Notes: generated from the sequence alone by a model not told the origin. DNA of 64,000 bases from an uncultured Myxococcales bacterium (GCA_964530995.1 CAZHCG010000005.1:3853-67852); one strand, 5' to 3'. Positions 685 through 50,494 are shown, counted from the first letter of the stretch. Program-made: numbers and translations.

Positions 685-3600
685 CTATTCTCCCACGTCT
701 TCCCGCCAAAGATCGGCGCAGATTCTGAATCCCACGCTGGTATCGCGAAAGGAGGGCTCGGTCACGGCCCGCTCCGCGACCTGGCAGGAGTTCTCGCCGT
801 AGTAGTAGCTGCCGCCGCGCGCGACGAAGCCGTCCTCCTCGAGAACGGAGCGCGTCCACTCCCAGGCGTTGCCCGCCATGTCGTCCAGACCGAAAGGCGA
901 GCGGGAGGCCGGGTGCGATCCGACCTCGTCGGGACCGATCGCGCCCGGCTTTTTTCCGTAGGTGTCGTCGTAGTTTGCCTCGTCACCGGACAGCGTGTCC
1001 CCGTGCGGGTAGCGGCGGTCGTCGGCTCCGCGCGCGGCCCGTTCCCACTCCAGCTCCGAGCAGAGGCGGGCGCCGGGCACGCGCCCGGTCTCGTCGAGCC
1101 AGCGCGCGTAGGCCTCGGCGTCGGCCGCGGTGATTCCGGTCACGGGAAACAGCAGCCAGTCCTGGACAGCGCGGCGTTCGCGTGCGGGAAAGCGGATCTT
1201 TTCCCCGGATTTTGCCTGGAAGCGCTCGCTGGACGGCTCCAGAGTCAGCTCGTAGCGTCCGTCCTCCAGGCGCCTGAGGCCGAGCGCGCCCTGGAATCCA
1301 CCTGCTCCCACCCGCGGCGTGCGCTCCTTCCTGAGCGAAGGGGAGAGTGACTCGAGGTAGCGCAGCCAGTCCGCGAAAGTCGTCTCGCGCCTGGCCACGA
1401 GGAAGGTCTCGGTGCGGCGCGGGTGGATCGGGACGGTGTGGAAGAAGTCGCGCCGCTGGCTGTCGGGAGCGCCGCTGCCGAACAGGAGCTCGCCGGCCGG
1501 CACGAAGGCGAAGCCGTCCGGGACCAGGCCCGCCTCGGGCAGCGAGACTTCGATTCTCGTCTCGCCGTCGCGCCGCAGCACGAAAGGCATCCGCACGCTC
1601 GTTCGTCCGGGGGAAGACAGGCGGGCCAGGTAGGATCCCGGCGGCAGCTCCGTCTCGTCCCCGGGTCGGATCCGATCGGAGACCGGCTCCAGGCTCCAGC
1701 GTCCCTCTGGCCTGCGAGCGTAGCGCTGGATCTCGATCTCCGAGTCCGGCGGCTCCACCTCCAGCCGCAGCCTGCCCGGGGCGTTCCAGGCGGCGACGCG
1801 GCTGCCGTCCTCGTCGTAGAGCGCGAGACGCCCCAGCAGCTCCTCCACCGCCCGCTCTTCCTCGCCTCGTTCGGCGGCGAGAGCGCGCGCCAGGATCACG
1901 TCGGCCAGCGCCTCGCGCGTCCGCCGGCGCTCGGGCGCGAGCAGCAAAGCCGTCTCCAAATGTCGCGAGGCTTCTCCGAAGGACTCTCGAGCTTGCGCTT
2001 CGAGATCCCTGTACTCTTTCCAGGCGCGCTCCGCGGCGTCCAGATCGGGCTCGTCGAACAGCCGCAGGGCGCGCTCGCGGGCGGCTCGCGCTTTTCGCTC
2101 CAGCTTCTCCGCCAATCCGACGCGCCGTTCGGCCTCGTTCACTGCGAGGCGCACCTCCTTACGCCTCTCCGCTCGCGCGGCCGCCTCCATTCCGAGGTAG
2201 ACGCCCATGACCAGCGCGCAGAGAGCGGCCGCGACTCCGATCGCGGCCCAACGGCGGCGATGGCGCGCCCGCCGCGAACGGGAGAGGAAGGCGCGCTCCG
2301 TCCTCGAGAGGGTAGCGGGATCGACGCGCTCCACCTCGCGGAGCTGAGCGGCCCCGAACAGCCCTTCCCGGCCTCGGCCGAGCCGTTCCCAGTCGGCGGC
2401 GGCGCGGCGGAGACGATCGCGGGCCAGGCGCGACTCGGCGTCGCGGGTCAGCCACCCGGACAGCGTGGGCCAGCCTTTCACCAGGGCCTCGTGGGCTATC
2501 TCGTAGGCCGGCAGCCCCTCGGACTCGCGGGCCACCACCAGCCTGCCCCTGACCAGCGAGTCGAGAGCCCGGCGCGCGCTCCCGCTCTCGTCCGTGCCCA
2601 GCTCGGCATCGCTCAGCCTGACCCGCGTTCCGTCGGGGCCCACCAGGCGCAGCAGCAGGCGGCGGGCGGCTTTTCGTTCTTCGGGGAGGAGTCGGGAGAG
2701 CACGTCGTCGGCGTGCCTGGCCAGAGCTCCCTCGACGCCGCCGATCCGCTTCAGCGCGGTTTGCGAGATCGTCCGCTCAGCGGGGCGGCGCACCTCCCAC
2801 AGCTCGGCGAGCGCGAACTGCAAGAGCGGCAGGCCGCCTCGAGAGCCCGTCGCCGAGGAGACGAGATCTTCGACCAGCTCCCGCGACTCGAAGGATGTTC
2901 CTTTGGCCAGCGCCGGCCCCACGATAGCGTCCCGCATCCGTTGCTCGGTGAGCGGCCTGAGAAAGTACAGGGCGCGTCCCAGGTCGTCGCCGAGCGGTCC
3001 CAGATCGGCGAGCCGACCGAGAAAATCTCCCCGAACCGTGCCGAGCACGCGGATTCCCGGCGCCGGGACGGCTAGCCAGTGGAGCGCCTCGGCGACGAGG
3101 TCCGCCTCCTCGGCCGCGGACAAGGTGACCAGCTCCTCGAGCTGGTCGATCAGCAGCACGGCACCGTCGCGTTCTCCGAGCCCGGTCCGCAGCCAGCGCC
3201 CGACGCCGGCTGGCTCCTCCTCCAGCAGGCGTTTCGCCTCGCGCTCCGGCGCGCCGGCCAACTCGGCCAGCGCCGCGGCCAGCGCTGCGACCGGGTGGCG
3301 GCCCGGGACGGCGCTCGCGGTCTTCCAGCGGCGCGGCGGCTCCACCCAGCCGTCCATCCGGGGCAAGACGCCGGCGCGGCCCAGCGAAGATTTGCCCACT
3401 CCCGAGTCGCCGACGACCAGTACCAGCGGATCGTTGGCCAGGCGATCGAGGACCATCCGGATCTCGGAGTCGCGACCGAAGAACAGGCCGCTGTGCTCCG
3501 CGTCGAACGCGTTGAGGCCGCGGTACGGGTTTCCTCCCGGAAGCACCCCCTGGCGCCGGCGCAGGGTCAGCCTGGAGATCGCAGCGCGCAGCTCCTCGCC

Positions 3601-4482: not shown

Positions 4483-6342
4483 TCAGCTCCTCTTTCGCCT
4501 GCGTCGCCCGCTCGGGATGTGCGAGAGGCCGTACAGCTTGAGCTTGGAGACGAACGTCCGCAGCGGCATGCCGATCAGCTCGGCCGCGCGGTTCCGGGTG
4601 CCGCCGGTCGCTCGCAGCGCCTGCTCGATCCGGGTCCGCTCCAGCTCCCGGATCTCCTCGGCCAGCTCGCGAAACGGCGGCGGTTCTTCGTCCGTCGGCC
4701 GCCCTTGGGGCGCGGGATCCATCTCCCGTCCGCGCCTCGGCGGCGTCGATTCGCGCCGCAGCCACGGGGCCGCCCGCGCTCCGATCTCGTCGGGCAGGTC
4801 CTTTGCTTCGATGCGGCGCGTCCCTCCGGTGACGGCCAGCAGCAGCCCGCCGAGGTTCTGCAACTCGCGCACGTTGCCGGGCCAGTCGTGGAGCAGCAGA
4901 CGTTGCATGGCGTCGTCGCCCACCGATATCGGTTCTTCGGCGCCCTCGGGGGTCAGGAAATGGCGCAGCAGCGGCGGAACGTCCAGCGGACGCCGCGACA
5001 GCGGAGGAACCGTCACGCGCGCCGCGCAGAGCCGAAAGTACAGGTCGCGCCTGAAGCGACCGGCCTCGACCTCGATCTCGATATCGCGGTTGGTGGCCGC
5101 CAGCACGCGAACGTCGATCCGTTTTTCTTCCACTCCGCCGACGCGGCGCACGCGCTTGGTCTCCAGCGTGCGCAACAGCCCGGCCTGGACCCGCGACGAG
5201 GCCTCGCAGATCTCGTCCAGGAAGATCGTGCCGCCCGCGCAGGCCTCGAACAGCCCGGGCCTGGTCGCGTCGGCGCCGGTGAAGGCTCCCTTCTCGTGAC
5301 CGAACAGCTCGCTTTCCAGCAGGGATTCGGCCACCGCGGCGCAGTTGACCGCGGTCATTCTGCGCGACGATCTCGGCGACCACTCGTGGAGCGCGGAGGC
5401 GACCAGCTCCTTGCCCACTCCGGTCTCTCCGCTGATCATCACCGGGATCTCGGCGGCCGCCAGCTCGCGGACCAGCTCCAGGGTGCGCTTCATGGTCGGA
5501 TCGGCGCAGACCAGGCGATGCTCGCCGATCTCGATCCGTTCGACCGCGGCGGAGAATCGCCGGAGATCGCCGCGGTCCGAGCAATGCGCGGCGCGGCGAG
5601 CGCTTTCCAGTAGATCGTCGGTCGCGATCGCGTCGGCCGGGCAGAGCGAGATCCCGGCGCCGGCGGCGACAGCGGTCTTCTCCAGGGCGGCCAGCAGACG
5701 CCGCGCCGGAATCTCGACCGCCTCGCCGCCGGTCTCCGGAAACAGCACGACCAGCTCTCCGGCGTCGGTCTCGCCGATCACGTCGACGACGCGGACGACT
5801 TCCGCGGCGATTTCGGCCTCCGCGCGCGACAGGCCCCCCGGGGCGGTCAGCAGCAGCAGGGCCAGCGGGCGACGGTAGCGCAGCGAGCGCTCCACCTCCT
5901 CGGAGAGCCGGCCGCGCAGCGCCGTTTCGTCCAGGATCTCCCGCCGGCCTCCTCGGGCGAATCCGCCGCGCGCCACGACGTGCGCTCCGGCCAGCTCGAC
6001 GGAGTCTCCCGAGCGAAGCAGCCTCGACTCGAGACCCGAGTCCTTTTCGCTCTCGGCTGCAGCGCGGTGAGGCTCGAAGCGGATCCCGTCCTCGCGCAGG
6101 ACGAAGCAGGCCAGCGCACGCTCGGGCCGCCGGGGCGAGATCGAGAGGAGGTCGTCGTCGTCCAGACCGGCGTACAGCGTCCCTACGGTCGGGAACGGAA
6201 CGGTGCGGGAAGAACGACGGCCGAGCACGAAAAGCTCCGCTGCGGCTCGATCGTCAAAGCGGTCTCCACGCTCGGCGCCGGATTCGTCACGGTCTTCGTC
6301 CCGCAATTCGCCGCTCCTTCGAAGGAGGCAGATAGCCGGCAT
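4483..6342 (-). CDS. Sigma54-dependent enhancer-binding protein with FHA-like and degenerate GGDEF-like N-terminal domains and a Fis-type HTH
   Basis: GETGVGKE, ELFGHEKGAFTGA, FLDEI, RVLAATNRD, FRRDLYFRL, WPGNVREL and C-terminal HTH (IEQAL...RNRAAELIGM). The stop codon directly abuts the kinase GTG start. The exact start is uncertain. Confidence 0.92.
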   Translation of the reverse strand: MPAICLLRRSGELRDEDRDESGAERGDRFDDRAAAELFVLGRRSSRTVPFPTVGTLYAGLDDDDLLSISPRRPERALACFVLREDGIRFEPHRAAAESEKDSGLESRLLRSGDSVELAGAHVVARGGFARGGRREILDETALRGRLSEEVERSLRYRRPLALLLLTAPGGLSRAEAEIAAEVVRVVDVIGETDAGELVVLFPETGGEAVEIPARRLLAALEKTAVAAGAGISLCPADAIATDDLLESARRAAHCSDRGDLRRFSAAVERIEIGEHRLVCADPTMKRTLELVRELAAAEIPVMISGETGVGKELVASALHEWSPRSSRRMTAVNCAAVAESLLESELFGHEKGAFTGADATRPGLFEACAGGTIFLDEICEASSRVQAGLLRTLETKRVRRVGGVEEKRIDVRVLAATNRDIEIEVEAGRFRRDLYFRLCAARVTVPPLSRRPLDVPPLLRHFLTPEGAEEPISVGDDAMQRLLLHDWPGNVRELQNLGGLLLAVTGGTRRIEAKDLPDEIGARAAPWLRRESTPPRRGREMDPAPQGRPTDEEPPPFRELAEEIRELERTRIEQALRATGGTRNRAAELIGMPLRTFVSKLKLYGLSHIPSGRRRRKRS

Positions 6343-9801: not shown

Positions 9802-10022
9802 CTCGTCTCCTTCCGCAAGGAACACGGTTTTCGCACCGAGACTCGAAGCGATGGAATTTTGCGTGACGAGCACCGACGATGTCAACGGTTTTTTGGCTCT
9901 AAATGGGTGTCTCGTCGAAGATCAAGAAGGGAAAAGCAGACGAGACCTTCTGTTGGAACGTCAATTGCAACACTGTTGTTTCGAGGCTACTGTATACTCC
10001 AATCAGCCGAGGAGGGCAGATC

Positions 10023-12821
10023 ATGAAAAAGAGCGCCACAACGACGGCGATCGGGCTGTTCGTGCTGTTGCTGGCCGGCGGCTCGGCGGCATTCACCGGC
10101 GGCGAGCGCCGGGTGGAGAGCGTACCGCCCGGGACGGAGTGGCTCGCCGGGCACTCCGGAAGCTCGAAGATTGGGTTCGTCGGGGAAGGCCCCGCCGAGC
10201 TGAGCGAAAGGTACGGCGGAGAGTGGACACAGCGCCGCGGAGGGCCTACCGGGGATTTTCGGCGCATCTGGGGATCGGGTGTCCCAGTCGGAGAGGCGGC
10301 GGTCGGCGACGAGCTGGTGGCCTGGGACGCCGCCGAGGCGTTCTGGACGCGAAACGAGGATCTGCTGCCCGGCGGAGCCGGGGCGGCGAACCTGGAGCCG
10401 GCGGTCACCTCTCTGTGGCGAGGGCTGCGCACTGTCACCCATCGCCAGACGGTGAACGGCGTGCCCGTGCTCGGCTCCAGCGCCACGCTGGCGATCCGCG
10501 CCGGCAGGATCGCCTTGATCGGCGTGCACCTTTTTCCGGTAAGGCCGGTCGAGACCGAGCCCTCGCTGAACGTGGAAAAGGCGGAGCAGGCCGCCGTCGA
10601 CGCGCTTTCCGAACGCGGAATAGCGGCCGACGTCGAGCGGTCGGAGCTGGCCCTGTTCCCCGTGCTGCGCGAGGACGCGCCCTCGCTGCGGCTGGTCTGG
10701 GCGGTGGAGCTGCAAGGCACCAGCTGGGGACGCTGGACGGCCTACATCGACGCCCACCGCGGGTCGCTGCTGGCCCTGCGGGACGAGCGCCTGTTCGTGA
10801 CCGGCTCGCTCAGGGGCAGGCACCACGAGCGGCACCCGGGGGGCGACGTGGTCGAGAGCCCGCTTTCCCATCTGTACATTTCTACTGACGACGGAGACGA
10901 CACCACGGACGAGGCCGGCGCCTTCTCGGTCGTGGGCGACACAACCGCGCTGCAGGCCTGGCTGTCGGGAATGTACGCCACGATCGCAAACAAGAGCGGC
11001 GGCGACCTGTTCATCGACGAGATCGACGTGGGCGCCGACCCGCTCGTGCTCGACACGGAGGCCTCGGAGGCCGAGTTCGCCCAGGTGCACGCCTACGTCT
11101 TCACCAACGAGGTTCGCGACCACGCTCGTGCGCTGATGGACGATCTGGCCTGGCTGGACGCCCCCCTGCCGGTCAACGTCAACAACATCGATCTGGACGG
11201 CGACCAGCAGCAGGACTTCTGCAACGCCTGGTTCGACGGCCAGTCGCTGAACTTCCTGATGGCCGGCGATCCGGGCTGGGGCATGGAGTGCAACAACACC
11301 GCGATGATCGGGGACATCCTCTACCACGAGTACGGCCACGGCTTTCACCTGGAGAACGCGATGATCGGCTCGATGGTCTTCGACGAGGCGATCAGCGAGG
11401 GCTTCGCCGACACGATGGCCTCGTCGGTCACGCTCGATTCCAAGATCGCGCCCTACTTCACCACCGAGGGTCACCACATCCGCGACCTGGAGCCGGACCT
11501 GGTCTGGCCCACCGACGTCTCGGAGGATCCCCACCAGACCGGGCTGATCGTGGGGGGAGCCTACTGGGACCTGCGGACCACCTTCCGGGAAGAGTACGGA
11601 GACGATCAGGGCAACGCGATGCTGGATCTGCTGTTCGCCGGGGCCACGCGCGTCGCGACCGACATCCCGTCGGCCTACGAGTCGACGCTGGTGGTCGACG
11701 ACGACAACGGCAACATAGAGGACGGCACGCCGCACTTCTGTCAGATCTACGACGCCTTCGCCGCCCACGGGCTCGCCTCCGAGGGCACCGGGCGGATCGC
11801 GATCGAGCACGAGCAGCTCGATGATCTCTCCGACCCCTCGCAGCCGGTGGTCGTGGAGGCCGAAGTCTGGGTGGCGGAGGAGGCCTGCAACGAGATGGGC
11901 CAGGTGCGGATCGCCTACAGCCTCGACGGCGGCGAGACGTGGACCTCCGAGGAGATGGAGAACGTCGGAGCGGACAGCTTCAGCCACGAGCTGGGGACGT
12001 TCGCGGAGGGCACGGAGCTGCTCTACCGGATCGAGGCCGACGAGAACCTCAGCGGCGACGTGATCACCCGGCCCAGCAACGCGGCCGAGCCGTACTACCG
12101 CGCCTATGTCGGACCGCTCGAGGAGATCGTGTTCGACGATTTCGAAAGCGAGGACGATTCCTGGACCCACGAGCTGACCGAGGGGATCGAGCGCGAGGGC
12201 GCCGACGACTGGCAGTGGGGGGTCCCGGCGGGCAAGGGCGGAGATCCCGACGAGGCCTACAGCCCGACCCACGTCTGGGGCAACGACCTGGCGCCGGCCT
12301 CGAACTGGAACGGCGAGTACCAGCCCGGCAAGGTCAACGCGCTGATCAGCCCGGCCTACGATCTGAGCGAGCACGATCTGGTGCGCCTGCGCCTGCGCCG
12401 CTGGCTGACAGTCGAGGACGGCTACTACGATCAGGCCACGATCTACGTCGGCGGCGAGGGAGACTGGCAGCCGGTCTGGACAAATTTCGTTTCCGAGGGA
12501 GACCAGAACGCATCGCACGTCACGCACCACATCGATCGCGAGTGGGTGCTGTTCGACCTGGACATCAGCGAGTGGGCCGCCGGGCGGAGCCAGGTCCAGA
12601 TCCGGTTCGAGATCGCCTCGGACGCCGGCCTGCAGTTCGGCGGCTGGACGATCGACGACTTCGGTCTCTACACCAGGGCCCAGGCCTCCGATCCCGGCGA
12701 CGGGGCGGACGCCGGGGCCGACGCCGGAGACGGCGGCGGATCCTCGGGAGGCTGCGGCTGTCTCGCGGCCGGCGGAAGCAGCTCCGACGGCGCCCTCGAA
12801 ACCCTCTTTTCGCTGATCTGA
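10023..12821 (+). CDS. Secreted zinc metalloprotease (thermolysin M4 / fungalysin M36-like) with propeptide, C-terminal beta-sandwich domains and a GCGC sorting-type tail
   Basis: Signal peptide MKKSATTTAIGLFVLLLAGG after RBS GAGGAG. FTP/PepSY-like propeptide (HRQTVNGVPV, YIDAHRG), HEYGH, EGFAD, DPHQTG. C-terminus GGCGCLAAGG...LFSLI. Confidence 0.85.
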   Translation: MKKSATTTAIGLFVLLLAGGSAAFTGGERRVESVPPGTEWLAGHSGSSKIGFVGEGPAELSERYGGEWTQRRGGPTGDFRRIWGSGVPVGEAAVGDELVAWDAAEAFWTRNEDLLPGGAGAANLEPAVTSLWRGLRTVTHRQTVNGVPVLGSSATLAIRAGRIALIGVHLFPVRPVETEPSLNVEKAEQAAVDALSERGIAADVERSELALFPVLREDAPSLRLVWAVELQGTSWGRWTAYIDAHRGSLLALRDERLFVTGSLRGRHHERHPGGDVVESPLSHLYISTDDGDDTTDEAGAFSVVGDTTALQAWLSGMYATIANKSGGDLFIDEIDVGADPLVLDTEASEAEFAQVHAYVFTNEVRDHARALMDDLAWLDAPLPVNVNNIDLDGDQQQDFCNAWFDGQSLNFLMAGDPGWGMECNNTAMIGDILYHEYGHGFHLENAMIGSMVFDEAISEGFADTMASSVTLDSKIAPYFTTEGHHIRDLEPDLVWPTDVSEDPHQTGLIVGGAYWDLRTTFREEYGDDQGNAMLDLLFAGATRVATDIPSAYESTLVVDDDNGNIEDGTPHFCQIYDAFAAHGLASEGTGRIAIEHEQLDDLSDPSQPVVVEAEVWVAEEACNEMGQVRIAYSLDGGETWTSEEMENVGADSFSHELGTFAEGTELLYRIEADENLSGDVITRPSNAAEPYYRAYVGPLEEIVFDDFESEDDSWTHELTEGIEREGADDWQWGVPAGKGGDPDEAYSPTHVWGNDLAPASNWNGEYQPGKVNALISPAYDLSEHDLVRLRLRRWLTVEDGYYDQATIYVGGEGDWQPVWTNFVSEGDQNASHVTHHIDREWVLFDLDISEWAAGRSQVQIRFEIASDAGLQFGGWTIDDFGLYTRAQASDPGDGADAGADAGDGGGSSGGCGCLAAGGSSSDGALETLFSLI

Positions 12822-13781
12822 TCAGCCGTCCGGGTTGTACTCCAGCGACAGCACCCAGGATTCCCACTCGCGCTGGAAGGCGTCGAGATCGTCCACCCCG
12901 AGCAGCCCTCGCAGTGTCGCGACGCCGCGGGGATCGTCGGCGACGTTGTCGCGGAACTCGCGGTAGAAGCGGCGCAGCAGCCCGCGTTCCTGCAAGTAGA
13001 GGCACAGGTAGCGCGACTGCGCGTAGTTCGTTCCGGGGTCTTGCTCGTAGAACTCGTGATCGTCGAGGGCGAACAGCTCCTCGAACGCTGGGAGATTTCC
13101 GGAGCGGATCGCGCGGACCAGGCCGGGCAGTCTCCAGTTGGCCAGGCCGTGGATCCGCCCCTCGCGCTCGACGCACTGCTCGAACAGCGAGCCGAGGCCC
13201 TCGTTCAGCCAGGGCGGGCAGCCGGGGAAGTCGGCCTCGACGAAGGGGTGCACGATCTCGTGGACCAGCGTGCCGCCGCCCGTGGCGATGTTCATCACCA
13301 GCGCGCGGTGCCGCGGGGAGTAGTAGCCGAAAGGCGTGTCCGGCCGCCGGCCGAACAGCTCGAGGGAATGGCGCGAGTAGCTCTCCGCGCCGGAGAAAAG
13401 CCAGATCGAGATCGCCGAGGTCGGCTCGGCGTCGAAGAACCCGGTCCGCAGCCGGTCGACGGCCCAGCGGATCGTGCGCTCGGTGAAGCGGCGCAGCTCC
13501 CGCGGCTCCAGATCGCCGGTCACGACGAACGGAGGAGCCACCAGCACGGCGAAGCCTTCGGGCGCCATCTCGGCTACTTTCGCCTTGCACTGCCGCATGT
13601 CGTCCGGCGCGGGCGGCGGCGAGCCCGATTCGGCATCGACCTGCGCCTCGTCGGGCCGGGTCGCGGGAGTCGGCTCGGCGGCGGATTTGCGCGAGGGAGT
13701 CTCGGCCGTGCCGCAGGCCGCCCCGACCGCCAGCAGAGCCGCGAGCAGAAGAACGGACGCGATCCCGAGCCTTGGAGCCAT
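12822..13781 (-). CDS. Lipoprotein with gluzincin HExxH domain (DUF1570 / peptidase MA-like)
   Basis: LAVGAAC lipobox and GGGTLVHEIVH...WLNEGLGSLFE. RBS GGAGGAG before ATG 13781. Confidence 0.8.
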   Translation of the reverse strand: MAPRLGIASVLLLAALLAVGAACGTAETPSRKSAAEPTPATRPDEAQVDAESGSPPPAPDDMRQCKAKVAEMAPEGFAVLVAPPFVVTGDLEPRELRRFTERTIRWAVDRLRTGFFDAEPTSAISIWLFSGAESYSRHSLELFGRRPDTPFGYYSPRHRALVMNIATGGGTLVHEIVHPFVEADFPGCPPWLNEGLGSLFEQCVEREGRIHGLANWRLPGLVRAIRSGNLPAFEELFALDDHEFYEQDPGTNYAQSRYLCLYLQERGLLRRFYREFRDNVADDPRGVATLRGLLGVDDLDAFQREWESWVLSLEYNPDG

Positions 13782-13914
13782 CTCTCCTCCCGGCGGCCTC
13801 GCCTCGGGCATGATAGCAGACGCCGCCAGGGGAGGGAGAAGATGCTCTTTTTTTGGCTCATCCGGATTCAGCCGCCTTCGTCTCGGCGTCCTTGGAGCCG
13901 CGCCCTGAAAAGGG

Positions 13915-14103
13915 CGCGGTCAGGATGACCTTTGCTCCTTCGGCGCCTACGACACCGCCGGCCAAGCCCGGAGGGCTGACGACCAGCACCGCCACCACGG
14001 CCTGTCCACGACGATCGCCGCCTGGGAACCGACCGACTGAAGCCCGCTGGGCGCGGCCGGTTGCATCGCAGGCTCGAGAGGCAAGGAGGCCATCCTGACC
14101 GCG
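13915..14103 (-). ncRNA. Candidate structured non-coding RNA (~189-nt rod-like hairpin, 6S-sized, family unassigned)
   Basis: Perfect 13-bp terminal inverted repeat (CGCGGTCAGGATG 13915-13927 / CATCCTGACCGCG 14091-14103). Further nested helices form with G.U pairs on the minus strand but would be C.A mismatches on the plus strand. The region is intergenic. Confidence 0.5.
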
Positions 14104-14242
14104 GCCTCATGAGGCCGCGGGGGAGAGCCGGAGCTGCTTTTCGACGTCCGCCGGGCGCCAGGCCCCCGGCCGGCAACGATCTTTCCACAGCGCGGATTGC
14201 TCGCGGGACAAGAGGCTCTTTAAAAAAACAGCGAATAGCGGA

Positions 14243-14272
14243 TTGACGAGCAAACCCCCGATCAGATATCCT
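14243..14272 (+). promoter_or_regulatory. Putative sigma70-type promoter for the 14310 gene
   Basis: TTGACG, 18-bp spacer, TATCCT, preceded by an A-tract (UP-element-like). Confidence 0.45.
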
Positions 14273-14309
14273 TCAACAGCTCGAACCAACTGCCGACAGG
14301 AGGGGCAAG

Positions 14310-14681
14310 ATGGGTCTATTCGATTTTTTGAACCCGAAAAAGGGCGCGCAGAAGAAGCTGATGAACGCGGTTCAGGACCAGGTCATGGACAAGGTCGACG
14401 AGGAACTCGATGTCACCGACGAGGCCGATCTGAAGGACAAGCTGCAAGAGATGATCTACTACCAGATGCAGGATCAGGCCACCGAGATCATTCCCGAGCC
14501 GCTGCAGAGCGTGTCCGACACGATTATCGACAAGGCCTCCGAGCAGCTGACCGCGCAGATGTACGATCCGGTCCGCAAGAAGGTGGCCCACAAGTTCGAG
14601 CCGCAGCAGGGCGCCCAGGCTGCGGCCGCTCAGGCTCCCGAGGGCGGCGGCGAGGGCGGCGGCGAGGAGCCGCAGGGCTGA
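14310..14681 (+). CDS. Hypothetical acidic helical protein
   Basis: RBS AGGAGG, host-like codon usage, MGLFDFL N-terminus, own promoter and terminator. Confidence 0.75.
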   Translation: MGLFDFLNPKKGAQKKLMNAVQDQVMDKVDEELDVTDEADLKDKLQEMIYYQMQDQATEIIPEPLQSVSDTIIDKASEQLTAQMYDPVRKKVAHKFEPQQGAQAAAAQAPEGGGEGGGEEPQG

Positions 14682-14688
14682 GGCCGAG

Positions 14689-14708
14689 AGGCGGCCCGCC
14701 GCCTTTTG
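14689..14708 (+). terminator. Putative intrinsic terminator
   Basis: AGGCGG-CCCG-CCGCCT hairpin followed by TTT, just after the 14681 stop. Confidence 0.55.
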
Positions 14709-14767
14709 TCGTGCTGGAAAACCCCGCAGTTTCTCGGCGAATCACGCGAGAGTGATTTTCGGTCGAT

Positions 14768-16330
14768 TCACGGCGCGGCGATCGCGTCGAACGGGATCAG
14801 CACCAGCGCCGCGATCAGTGCCAGCAGCGCGAGAATCGTGCAGCCTACCCAGCGATCCTGGTCGACCGACCAGCGTTCCCTGCGCAGCGCGGCGAGCAGC
14901 GGGAAGGTGCCGAGCAGAATCAGCACCGGGTCGTAGGGAATCCGATAGCGAATTTCGCCGAAGTACGTCGCCGACGCGTAGAGCAGCGTGGCCACGTACA
15001 GCGACGCCAGCTCCAGCCCGGGCTTGAAACGCCGGGCCAGCAACGCTATTCCCAGCGCGGCCAGCGGCAGCAGGATCGAAGGGGCGACTCTGCGCCACCC
15101 GTTGGCGAGCTTGGGTCTCCACCACTGCTCCGCCTCCATTCGCCGCTCGGCCAGGGATCCGGCCAGATCGATCTCGGCCGGTCGGTGTTTTCGCGGGGCG
15201 TTTTCTTTTTGCAGCTCCCACGCCCGCTTCTTCTCGGCGAAGCTCCCCGCGTAGCTCTTCCAGTTGTACTCGGGCCACATCCTGTTGCCGTAGGCCAGCG
15301 CGACGATGTTGCGCCGCAACGTCGACAGCTTTTCGAAAAACGATTTCGATCTCCACACGCGCCGTCGCTCCGGGTCGAGCTTCTCGGCGTCGGCGATGTA
15401 GCCCTCGAAGCGAAAGACGCCCTTGCAGCCGAGCGCTTCGGTCCGCGCCGGCGGGTAGAAGCTGCGATTGTCGTGGTTTTCGATGTGGCCGTAGTCGGTG
15501 GCGGCGAAGAAGCGCCCGATCGGCGCGTTGCCGGATATCAGCGCGACCTCGCCGGTGAAATGGTGGTAGCGGTAGACGCTGAAGGCGACGACGAGCGCGA
15601 TCGGCACCGCGATCCAGGCGAGGTGACGCCGGCGGAAGTGATCGAGGCGGCGCTGTCGCACGACCAGCCACGCCAGGCAGAGCAGCGATGTCATCAGCAT
15701 CTTGGGCCGCAGGGTGAACCCCACCGCCTGCGACAGCCCGGCGGCCCAGGCTCCGCGGCCGGTCTGCGCATAGCGGATCCAGAGCCAGAGGCTGAGCGCG
15801 ATCGCGCAGGAGAACGGAGCCTCGGAGGTGAAGTACCCCGAGTAGGCGATCTGAGGGTACCAGAGGGCCGCGGCCGCGCCGACGATCACCGCGCCCGGCA
15901 GGGAGGCGAAGCACCTGCGGGCCGAGAGCATGGAGAAGGTCGCGGCCAGTGATCCGACCAGGGCCTGCACCACCGCCATCGCGGTCATGTCGAGACCGGC
16001 CATCCGATGGCGCAGTTGGTCGGCCAGGCCCGAATCGGCCAAGCCGAACAGCCACAGCTGAAGCGCGTAGAAGTAGTGGACGCCCCAGGGGAAGAGCGCG
16101 ACATCGAGCTTGCGGGTCTCGGAGACCTCCTGCAAGTCGGACAGCAGCCACACGGCCCTGAAGACGTAGGACCGCATGTCCGAGAAGATCGCTTCCCCCG
16201 GAGGCTGGACCGCCAGCGCCCAGTAGAGCCTGAGGCCGAAAGCGACCAGGGAGATCGCGACTATCGAGATCGCGAAGCGATCTCGCTCGCCGGACAGAAC
16301 CTCGCTCAGTCGTCGGATGCGAAGAAACAT
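14768..16330 (-). CDS. GT-C fold multi-pass membrane glycosyltransferase (ArnT/PMT-like)
   Basis: First TM followed by an acidic loop (IFSDMRSY), then many TM helices, TSEAPF and C-terminal RYRIPYDP. Confidence 0.72.
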   Translation of the reverse strand: MFLRIRRLSEVLSGERDRFAISIVAISLVAFGLRLYWALAVQPPGEAIFSDMRSYVFRAVWLLSDLQEVSETRKLDVALFPWGVHYFYALQLWLFGLADSGLADQLRHRMAGLDMTAMAVVQALVGSLAATFSMLSARRCFASLPGAVIVGAAAALWYPQIAYSGYFTSEAPFSCAIALSLWLWIRYAQTGRGAWAAGLSQAVGFTLRPKMLMTSLLCLAWLVVRQRRLDHFRRRHLAWIAVPIALVVAFSVYRYHHFTGEVALISGNAPIGRFFAATDYGHIENHDNRSFYPPARTEALGCKGVFRFEGYIADAEKLDPERRRVWRSKSFFEKLSTLRRNIVALAYGNRMWPEYNWKSYAGSFAEKKRAWELQKENAPRKHRPAEIDLAGSLAERRMEAEQWWRPKLANGWRRVAPSILLPLAALGIALLARRFKPGLELASLYVATLLYASATYFGEIRYRIPYDPVLILLGTFPLLAALRRERWSVDQDRWVGCTILALLALIAALVLIPFDAIAAP

Positions 16331-46999: not shown

Positions 47000-47944
47000 T
47001 CAGCGGTAGACGGCCCAGGAGGTGAATGTGGCGGACTCGTTGTAGATTCTCAGGCCGGAGAGGCCGGCCATCTCCGGCCAGACGTCTCCTTCGTCCAGCA
47101 CCAGCTCTCCGTAGCCTCCCCCTTCGTCTTCGTATGTGCACAGCACGCTCAGGCCGTTGTAGTAGGCGCGGACCTTGTGCCAGCCCGCGGGCTCGGTCTG
47201 GACAGACACGTCGACCCCGTCGATCGGGCTGATCGAGCTGCCCCCCTCGAGAATCCAGGCGCTGAGCCGGTTGCTGTCGCGCTCGAACAGGCAGGTGATC
47301 CAGACCGTCTGCTCGAAAGGGAAACCCTGCTCGTGCGCGGCGAAGAACAGGCCGGCGTAGCTTCCTCCTCCGGGGTTCTGATCTCCGAATCGGAAGGTCG
47401 TCTCGACCGAGTAGATGCCCTCCTCGAGGAACGGCTCGCGGTAGTTGTTGGTGCCGTACGTCTGCATCGCCGCCGTAAGCGAGTCGTTGCCCCACGACCA
47501 CTGCTCGCTGTCCGGATTCCACTGGTCCTGGCTGTCGAGCAGAGGATCGAAGATCTCGATGCTCTCCAACAGATCCTCGTTCCACGCCGCCTCGCAGGCG
47601 TCGCCCACGTCGTCGCCGTCGCCGTCGGCCTGATCGCCGTTGGGATAGGTCGGGCAGTTGTCGCAGTTGTCGTCGAGGCCGTCTCCGTCCTCGTCGTGCC
47701 CGTTGCCCTGGCAGTCGGTATCGGTATCGGCGTCCGAGTCCGCGTCGGAGTCGGAATCGGAGTCCGCGTCGGCGTCCGTGTCCGTGTCTCCGTCCGTGTC
47801 TCCGTCCGCGTCGGAATCGGCGTCCGAGTCGGCGTCGGTGTCCGCGTCGGTACCGCCGTCCAGCGAGAACGGTTGCGGCGCCTCTCCGGAGCAGCTCCAG
47901 GTCAGGAGCAACACCGGCACGATCGGCAGCAGTCTGAGCAGCAT
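47000..47944 (-). CDS. Lipoprotein with Asp-Ser/Thr/Ala linker, thrombospondin type-3 repeat and C-terminal ConA-like beta-sandwich
   Basis: LLTWSC lipobox, a long DTDADTDADSD tract and DEDGDGLDDNCDNCP..PNGDQADGDGDDVGDAC. RBS GGAGGAGG. Confidence 0.8.
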   Translation of the reverse strand: MLLRLLPIVPVLLLTWSCSGEAPQPFSLDGGTDADTDADSDADSDADGDTDGDTDTDADADSDSDSDADSDADTDTDCQGNGHDEDGDGLDDNCDNCPTYPNGDQADGDGDDVGDACEAAWNEDLLESIEIFDPLLDSQDQWNPDSEQWSWGNDSLTAAMQTYGTNNYREPFLEEGIYSVETTFRFGDQNPGGGSYAGLFFAAHEQGFPFEQTVWITCLFERDSNRLSAWILEGGSSISPIDGVDVSVQTEPAGWHKVRAYYNGLSVLCTYEDEGGGYGELVLDEGDVWPEMAGLSGLRIYNESATFTSWAVYR

Positions 47945-49957: not shown

Positions 49958-50494
49958 ATGAAGAAGATGCGCAAGAGCACTTTGACGATGATCCTGCTGG
50001 GACTGCTCGCCTCCGCGCTGGCGTTCGGTTGCGGCGACGACGACAACGACGGCGACGGGACCGACGCGGACGCGGATTCCGACACCGATTCCGACAGCGA
50101 CTCGGACAGCGACGGCGACAGCGACTCGGACACCGACTCGGACACCGGCGCGGGCTACACCGTGACCGCCACCGTTTCGGTGCCGTCCGACTTCGACGCC
50201 ACGCCGGTCAAGATCGGCGCGCACTTCTACGACTCGCTGCCCCCGGCCGGCCCGCCGTCGGTGATGGGCGAGATCGTCGATGATCCGGAGATCGGCGTCG
50301 ACACCCCCTACGACCTGGAGATGAACGGGGTCGAGGCCGAGGGCGATTACTTCCTGTACGTGGTTCTCTACGTCGAAGACGGCGGAGACACCATGCCCTC
50401 TCCCGGCGTCGATTACGTCGGAGAATCGGAGCAGCTGACGTTCGGCGAGGGCGACGTGGACGCGGGAGAGATCGATCTGGCGCTGGCGGAATGA
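49958..50494 (+). CDS. Lipoprotein with Asp-Ser/Thr linker and small beta-sandwich domain
   Basis: ALAFGC lipobox, DADADSDTDSDSDSDSD tract, then a domain with a PxPGVDYVG motif. Confidence 0.8.
   Translation: MKKMRKSTLTMILLGLLASALAFGCGDDDNDGDGTDADADSDTDSDSDSDSDGDSDSDTDSDTGAGYTVTATVSVPSDFDATPVKIGAHFYDSLPPAGPPSVMGEIVDDPEIGVDTPYDLEMNGVEAEGDYFLYVVLYVEDGGDTMPSPGVDYVGESEQLTFGEGDVDAGEIDLALAE

Follow-up and report, generated by a model that had tools for sequence, protein, structure and literature searches.

A rod-forming palindrome upstream of an HExxH protein gene in an uncultured Myxococcales bacterium is very probably a decayed MITE with ISL3-type ends

The imperfect palindrome at 13898-14120 is by far the longest inverted repeat of the 64,000-nucleotide stretch of DNA from an uncultured Myxococcales bacterium analysed here (hereafter the window, 64 kb). 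It lies between two divergent ORFs, one encoding an HExxH protein on the minus strand and the other an orphan on the plus strand, and the question it raises is whether this is an RNA, a regulatory leader or something else altogether. A preliminary description made from the sequence had proposed a rod-like RNA of ~190 nt transcribed from the minus strand, and had offered as readings a divergent 6S RNA, a new sRNA or switching leader of the HExxH gene, or a MITE-like palindromic element. We therefore examined how the region folds, where else it occurs and what its parts resemble.

A repeat search placed two inverted arms at 13898-13977 and 14041-14120 (80 nt, 70% complementary, 63-nt spacer) and a perfect 22-bp palindrome at 14099-14120, and the sequence itself contains an 8-bp stem, CCGCGCCC/GGGCGCGG, at 13898-13919; both terminal hairpins are thus present at the positions first given for them. 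Folded as minus-strand RNA, the interval 13890-14125 reached -144.6 kcal/mol, compared with -114.2 +/- 5.3 kcal/mol for 200 dinucleotide shuffles of that strand, none of which was as good (z = -5.75). The fold consists of the two terminal hairpins and a long interrupted rod, as claimed, and both the minimum-free-energy and the centroid structure have a small apical domain and no large central bubble, again in agreement with the first reading. Folding of both strands against shuffled controls had been recommended, and the plus strand also folds far better than chance (-128.6 kcal/mol, z = -4.86), the minus strand being 16 kcal/mol the more stable. Since both strands fold well, the signal is that of a DNA palindrome rather than of a strand-specific structure. 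The proposed RNA strand is antisense to the remnant of a transposase gene that lies between the arms. The features of the locus are as follows (coordinates of the window, with strand where one applies).

12822-13811, minus strand: ORF of the HExxH protein; likely start ATG 13781, after GGAGGAG
13847-13854: A/T-rich target sequence, C followed by seven T, directly left of the element; the empty site has eight T
13855-14231: whole block missing from the orthologous site of a related strain, 377 bp (filled versus empty site)
13855-13876, plus strand: left terminal inverted repeat of ISL3 type, GGCTCATCCGGATTCAGCCGCC; 18/22 against the consensus GGTTCATCCGGATCCAGCCGTG
13898-13930, plus strand: left REP-like module, a 33-nt motif that flanks the Y1 gene in long copies; hairpin CCGCGCCC-TGAAAA-GGGCGCGG (13898-13919) and tail GGTCAGGATGACC (13918-13930)
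13958-13977, plus strand: left inner conserved module CCGGCCAAGCCCGGAGGGCT with small hairpin AGCCC/GGGCT; conserved in the family, the internal deletion junction coming next
13978-14040, plus strand: 3'-terminal remnant of an IS200-type Y1 transposase gene, DDQHRHHGLSTTIAAWEPTD and stop (tblastn, alignment)
14040-14060, plus strand: right inner conserved module AAGCCCGCTGGGCGCGGCCGG, inverted counterpart of 13958-13977 (repeat search, 17-copy comparison)
14088-14120, minus strand: right REP-like module, inverted; tail GGCCATCCTGACC (14088-14100) and palindrome CCGCGGCCTCATGAGGCCGCGG (14099-14120)
14121-14162, plus strand: right outer segment; continuous homology to complete 335-bp copies stops at 14162 (arguably 14173)
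14163-14231: tail of the inserted block beyond the family homology, 69 nt
14310-14681, plus strand: orphan ORF of 123 amino acids, divergent from the HExxH ORF

The structure therefore occupies 13898-14120, as had been described, but the unit to which it belongs is larger, with 308 bp of family homology (13855-14162) inside an inserted block that runs from 13855 to 14231. Within it, the module at 13898-13930 recurs in inverted form at 14088-14120, the arms agreeing at 28/35 positions. ORFs across the region gave no Pfam match, and a coding reading of 13868-14188 (minus strand) and 13853-14098 (plus strand) was rejected, these being typical high-GC spurious ORFs.

Comparison with a related strain showed that the site is polymorphic for presence and absence of the block. 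In an 8743-bp contig of X5 (depth 14.3) and a 299-bp contig of X6, position 13854 is joined to 14232 with a single T between them and 377 bp absent; these empty-site contigs match the window over 13300-13854 (94%) and 14232-14800 (97.5%), and the related strain keeps both flanking genes. The filled allele occurs in X1, X2 and X3 on contigs of 6.5-19.5 kb. As it was assembled independently in three runs, each time with 100% identity and at unit depth, we rejected an assembly artefact. The left edge of the polymorphism is the first base of the terminal repeat, both the homology to sister copies and the empty-site joint beginning exactly at 13855. At the right end, the last ~13-28 nt of the element, including the terminal repeat, are gone from the window copy, where a search allowing up to five mismatches gave no match to that repeat. 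Because the right terminal repeat is lost, we regard the window copy, judged from its sequence, as probably a fossil and probably immobile. The inserted block is also 69 nt longer than the family homology (14163-14231), which is a caveat to reading it as a MITE.

This extra segment and the borders of the block have features of their own. Over 14164-14203, 34-35 of 40 positions are alike at another locus, which has conserved flanks of its own and occurs in contigs of X1-X6 and X8, with a few more flank variants in X8. A sigma-54-type promoter at 14172-14187 (minus strand) was considered as the cause of this 40-nt similarity and dropped, as it has three mismatches and such matches are no commoner than chance (72 found against 82 expected). 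Positions 14205-14221 match 13834-13850 in the left flank as a direct repeat with 15/17 identity (GGGAGAAGATGCTCTTT / GGGACAAGAGGCTCTTT), and 13844-13854 and 14222-14232 form a 10/11 inverted repeat. Both repeats sit exactly at the borders of the inserted block, and an 8-bp target duplication explains neither.

BLASTN had been suggested as a check on copy number, and it revealed copies at unrelated sites in related genomes, the full element being single-copy in the 64-kb window and in the window's own metagenomes. The Polyangia MAG BLK3-3.bin.217 carries copies 88-92% identical to that of the window at four or more loci, on four other contigs (L132, L255/L250, L210 and L238) with unrelated flanks. 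The closest complete copies are L132 (91.1% over 13848-14162) and L255 (90.6% over 13855-14162), each of 335 bp, and the alignment to L238 runs to 14173. More distant copies number dozens across the MAGs CSMAG_306, CSMAG_220 and CSMAG_2956. The 33-nt hairpin and tail motif, CCGCGSCCTNNNNAGGSCGCGGTCAGGATGRCC, was found in 48 stretches belonging to only four Myxococcota MAGs, namely these three and Polyangia BLK3-3.bin.217, of ~185,000 species genomes. Scans of genome contigs with 16-mers and 19-mers of the tail returned mostly single chance matches in unrelated phyla, only the paired matches in Myxococcota MAGs being informative; a match in L065 (Bradymonadales) was rejected as a chance match inside a gene, and a 23-mer spanning the deletion junction gave one chance match to metagenome contigs, in an unrelated coding region. 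In contigs of X8 and X11 the interval ~13848-14203 reaches 3-10 times the depth of its flanks and breaks into many short pieces and loose ends with differing flanks.

Two further observations concern abundance and arrangement. A 31-nt unitig with four mismatches to the terminal-repeat region 13854-13884 has a depth of 100-120 against 5-11 for the genome (X1, X3 and X4), and over the repeat a 31-mer unitig is covered 10-13 times as deeply as the filled-allele contigs (X1-X3). Elements with this terminal repeat are thus high-copy in the community, though the full element is single-copy. Head-to-tail junctions of two copies via GCCGACACGG, running from the right outer segment into a left end, occur in X8 (joint 14163 to 13862) and in L238 (363-759), which suggests tandem dimers or circle-junction-like forms.

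The ends of the complete copies identify the kind of element involved. The 22-bp repeat GGTTCATCCGGATCCAGCCGTG and its inverse form the two ends of nine complete copies, 335-725 bp long, and lie ~40-70 nt outside the hairpins when long and short copies are aligned; the window retains the left one (18/22), whereas L132, L255 and seven further copies have both. The copies are flanked on both sides by 8-bp A/T-rich target duplications (for example AAAAAACA twice, TATTTTTT twice, GAAGAAAC/GAAAAAAC and CTGATTGT/TTGATTGT). Among the nine complete copies, the two 8-mers flanking the same copy agree at a mean of 6.3/8 positions, compared with 3.6/8 between different copies, and not one of 20,000 permutations gave agreement as high as that of the true pairs. 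A 1436-bp element of a Myxococcales MAG (L276, 5057-6492) has these terminal repeats at its two ends, each with one mismatch, and the 416-amino-acid product of its ORF gives 240 bits on Pfam DDE_Tnp_ISL3 and a match to HTH_Tnp_ISL3 as well. Repeats beginning with GG and 8-bp A/T-rich duplications are typical of the ISL3 family. Only the terminal ~27 bp are common to L276 and the short elements. Searched by tblastn in the window and in all retrieved loci, the ISL3 transposase was found only in L276 and in none of the pieces of the four element-bearing MAGs; the one autonomous ISL3 element found with these ends thus belongs to a Myxococcales MAG other than the four carriers. As the window copy shows neither a recognisable right repeat nor its own target duplication, how it arrived must be read from the sister copies.

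The interior of the element has a different origin. Copies of 725 bp carry an ORF of 138 amino acids between two inverted modules, each a hairpin with the tail GGTCAGGATGRCC, and the encoded protein contains LLYHMVFRTK, HIHLLV and YIRNQRKHH. In L162 this ORF scores 77.9 bits on Pfam Y1_Tnp (E = 9e-22) and 77 bits on NCBIfam transpos_IS200 (cut-off 55), reaches only 17.6 bits on REP_Tyr_transpos (cut-off 80), and matches the TnpA structures of IS608 and ISDra2 in the PDB. The parent element thus has a Y1 HUH transposase of the IS200/IS605 kind, of which the window holds a C-terminal remnant only. At least five full-length copies of the gene are present in CSMAG_306 (L162, L241, L246, L261 and L275). 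There the 725-bp units (L246 5796-6520, L275 2612-3336, and those in L241, L261 and L162) place the Y1 gene and inverted hairpins inside ISL3-type repeats with ~8-bp duplications, one transposase gene being in effect the passenger of another family's shell.

In the window only the last 20 codons of the Y1 gene are retained, on the plus strand. No other part of the window gives the L162 transposase a better tblastn match than this remnant (13981-14037, 53% over 19 amino acids, E = 0.16), and nucleotide homology to L162 and L206 extends over 14008-14120 (E of about 1e-9). Residues Q121, H125, T129, T130, W134 and E135 are invariant in full, partly deleted and remnant copies, and the stop codon of the remnant adjoins the AAGCCC hairpin, as it does in full-length copies. 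The spans from hairpin to hairpin form a series of 620, 486, 483, 414, 413, 351, 348, 344, 338 and 264 bp, with deletion intermediates that keep both ends of the gene (L206) or its C-terminus only (L137). Every copy has the same order in each of its inverted arms: hairpin, GGTCAGGATGRCC tail, ~27 variable nt and the module CCGGYCAAGCCCnnnGGGCT, which is conserved at both ends in 17/17 copies. Identity between the two arms of a copy is 80-94% over hairpin and tail and 75-95% over the inner module, and falls to 36-60% in the middle (arm positions 36-60), where the window stands at the top of the range. Because the middle of the arm is so poorly matched across copies, a continuous rod is a feature of the subfamily and not of the family.

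These data make it very likely that a ~335-bp MITE has left a decayed and probably immobile copy at 13855-14162, lying in the 377-bp block missing from the related strain and having ISL3-type ends around a core of Y1 gene and hairpins. The suggestion of a MITE-like palindromic element was thus borne out by multiple copies, by terminal repeats and 8-bp duplications in the sisters, by ISL3 ends, by a filled and an empty site and by an IS200-type remnant. In the mechanism that we propose, an ISL3-family DDE transposase would act in trans on the outer layer, the 22-bp ends, and so move the element, as the ends and duplications indicate. The inner layer would be an internal-deletion derivative of a cassette in which a 138-amino-acid IS200-type Y1 (HUH) gene lies between two inverted REP-like modules, each comprising an 8-bp GC hairpin, the tail GGTCAGGATGRCC, ~27 variable nt and CCGGYCAAGCCCnnnGGGCT. 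Loss of all but the last 20 codons would have drawn the two inverted modules together, and their closeness would let either strand fold into a long interrupted rod flanked by two hairpins. From the precedent of IS608 and of REP/RAYT systems, the hairpins are most likely the single-stranded-DNA recognition sites of the Y1 enzyme. An RNA function is not needed to explain the structure.

More tentatively, the whole family may be a hybrid, in which an IS200/RAYT-like Y1 gene and inverted REP-like hairpins were packaged in ISL3-type repeats and multiplied as an ISL3-moved passenger; this would be previously undescribed, and our literature search found no description of the element family or of an ISL3-bounded Y1 cassette. 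We hold this broader proposal to be possible rather than probable. The two-layer architecture is the only unusual aspect of the element, as comparison with known systems illustrates. Like a MITE or a mobile insertion cassette of the ISL3 family, the window's family is small and non-coding with ends near-identical to those of the autonomous L276; like MITEs, it is multi-copy, polymorphic between filled and empty sites, and has copies with 8-bp A/T-rich target duplications; and like a mobile insertion cassette its 725-bp relatives carry a passenger gene between the repeats. Unlike in a MITE, the interior is not a deleted ISL3 transposase gene but a second, unrelated transposon-type cassette (Y1 gene and hairpins), and the window copy is without its right repeat.

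The resemblance to the IS200 group of IS200/IS605 elements is similarly partial. The family transposase is ~140 amino acids long, with the HUH motif HIHLLV and the catalytic Tyr in YIRNQ, and the full unit of ~700 bp has subterminal hairpins at both ends. In this family as in such elements, non-autonomous derivatives keep the ends, PATEs being palindrome-associated derivatives of IS200/IS605. To our knowledge, however, IS200/IS605 elements have neither terminal inverted repeats nor target duplications, and their left and right ends are not symmetric, whereas here the ends are inverted copies of each other, the cassette sits inside an ISL3-type shell and the mobile unit has 22-bp terminal repeats and 8-bp duplications. 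Nor do we know of Y1 enzymes, whether of IS200/IS605 or RAYT chemistry, that make such target duplications.

This last point bears on the best of the other explanations, in which the element would be a REPIN-like doublet spread by a Y1 (RAYT-like) transposase acting on the inverted hairpin modules, the ISL3-type ends being incidental. Its appeal lies in the architecture, for RAYT genes and REPINs likewise combine a Y1 gene with inverted palindromic modules on either side (PMC3116915, PMC5581495), and as in REPIN/REP and RAYT (TnpA-REP) systems two inverted modules form a long hairpin and the modules that flank the gene are also dispersed alone (PMC3116915, PMC5581495, PMC8266576). The hairpin and tail module indeed occurs with no ISL3 repeat nearby, as ~95-nt doublets in L186 and L257, in tandem in L203, and as solo modules of 35-45 nt with unlike flanks in X5, X6 and X11. 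In this copy and its closest relatives, however, the edges of homology and of the polymorphism fall exactly at the ISL3-type repeat, ~43 nt outside the hairpin, and the complete copies have 8-bp target duplications, so that the spread of the subfamily bears the marks of a DDE enzyme. The Y1 protein passes the IS200 model and falls under the REP_Tyr_transpos cut-off, and its gene is multi-copy (at least five copies in CSMAG_306), whereas RAYT genes are typically present once per genome (PMC5581495). The rod, moreover, is ~220 nt long with a gene remnant inside, compared with ~100 nt for a REPIN, and neither a GTAG nor a CGTC tag was recognised in the family. We consider spread as a REPIN unlikely.

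The ISL3-free modules were located more precisely. The ~95-nt REPIN-like doublets pair the hairpin+GGTCAGGATGACC module with a second hairpin, CCGCGGCGTTTACGCCGCGG (L186, about 3300-3410; L257, 755-850), and in L203 hairpin and tail recur as 119-bp tandem units (6056-6207); these three loci lie in the MAGs CSMAG_220 and CSMAG_306.

Readings at the level of RNA were examined by comparing the window with its closest copies. Searches of RNA runs gave none that contains the sequence. Covariation had been named as a check, and none was seen: among the 89 predicted pairs of the window fold there were 0 compensatory substitutions in L132 and L255, while 10 pairs are broken in the former and 11 in the latter, with one one-sided conservative change. 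The only double change that is clear falls within a terminal hairpin, where the right REP-like stem differs from the left hairpin by G-C to C-G with pairing retained; this fits selection for hairpin formation, as would be expected for a Y1 binding site. Substitutions are ~3 times fewer at rod-paired than at unpaired positions (6-7% versus 18-22%), which is compatible with some constraint on the arms and would be explained by protein-binding modules. The G.U pairs of the minus strand had been taken as a mark of selection at the RNA level, but this bias is not repeated in the closest copies: transition mismatches giving G.U on the minus versus the plus strand number 7 versus 3 in the window, 6 versus 5 in L132 and 4 versus 6 in L255. 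One antisense-strand G.U is fixed by a difference between the ends, GATGACC on the left and GATGGCC on the right, that all 17 copies examined share.

It is very unlikely that the element serves the HExxH gene as a structured cis-acting leader or switch, read from the minus strand and built on alternative terminal hairpins. The position would suit such a role, as the element is on the gene's side, 74-100 nt ahead of it (74 nt to the likely start at 13781), and the rod helix does face competition from the terminal hairpins; transcription starting upstream of the insert could also read through it, as no minus-strand promoter-like site was found between element and gene. Yet the related strain has both genes without the 377-bp block, so the HExxH gene does not need it, and sister copies at other loci adjoin unrelated genes. 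No U-tract follows either hairpin, and neither promoter-like nor terminator-like sites were found in the element. The promoter-like site at 14243-14272 (plus strand) is predicted to serve the orphan ORF. For the HExxH protein itself, no orthologous loci were found, and an exact look-up of the protein was also empty. Read-through transcription could place the rod in the HExxH leader as a side effect, and any influence on the gene would be incidental to the insertion, 74 nt ahead of its start.

The 6S RNA reading fared no better. No Rfam family reached its gathering score over the 64 kb, a permissive scan of 13600-14500 (E<=10) returned sub-threshold noise only and no 6S RNA (RF00013), and six loci with related copies had no match at the gathering thresholds. 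Least probable of all is an independent small RNA gene, be it a divergent 6S RNA or a new minus-strand sRNA of ~190 nt: the size and overall rod shape are those of 6S RNA, the folding z-score is strong, the minus strand is the more stable by 16 kcal/mol and the strand antisense to the transposase remnant folds better in 11/13 family copies, but the rod has no central bubble and no covariance-model match, its middle is only 36-60% complementary across copies, compensatory changes are absent, the locus is empty in a close relative with no conservation at a fixed place, and the strand difference stems from inherited end-specific bases and is absent from the G.U counts of the closest copies.

Reading the locus as a MITE removes a false RNA-gene candidate from the annotation and supplies a masking signature for the family in Myxococcota MAGs, namely the terminal repeat GGYTCATCCGGATYCAGCCG together with the hairpin and tail motif CCGCGSCCTNNNNAGGSCGCGGTCAGGATGRCC. 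It also provides a natural expression test: in one strain most of the region upstream of the HExxH gene is cut off from it by a 377-bp structured block, which a close relative lacks. A DDE-type shell with a Y1/REP-type core and a full series of deletion derivatives bears on the origin of REPIN-like and MITE-like palindromic repeats. If the hybrid reading is true, internal deletions (from 725 to 335 bp) would yield REPIN-like rods directly, and the family would be a natural deletion series of palindromic rod repeats born from a transposase gene; as the hairpin modules also disperse alone, two transposition chemistries may then act on one sequence.

Other parts of the window gave minor observations. 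The orphan product of 14310-14681 (plus strand) is acidic and Q/E-rich, with a good ribosome-binding site, GGAGGGG, and the promoter-like site at 14243-14272; it had no homologue among 5.8 billion proteins, and the ORF is kept in the related strain at 97.5% DNA identity. The intervals 47591-47856 and 50036-50168 are 72-82% identical to several places in loci of CSMAG_306 and of the Polyangia MAG, and recur within L255. A repeated coding domain common to those Myxococcota genomes is the probable explanation, and the similarity hints at the affiliation of the host. Finally, the window's best match to the sigma-54 -24/-12 consensus, TGGAACGTCAATTGCA at 9954-9969 (plus strand), has one mismatch and lies ~55 nt upstream of the MKKSATTT... 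start of a metalloprotease-like ORF (9903-12821) with hints of InhA-like MAM and FTP propeptide domains.
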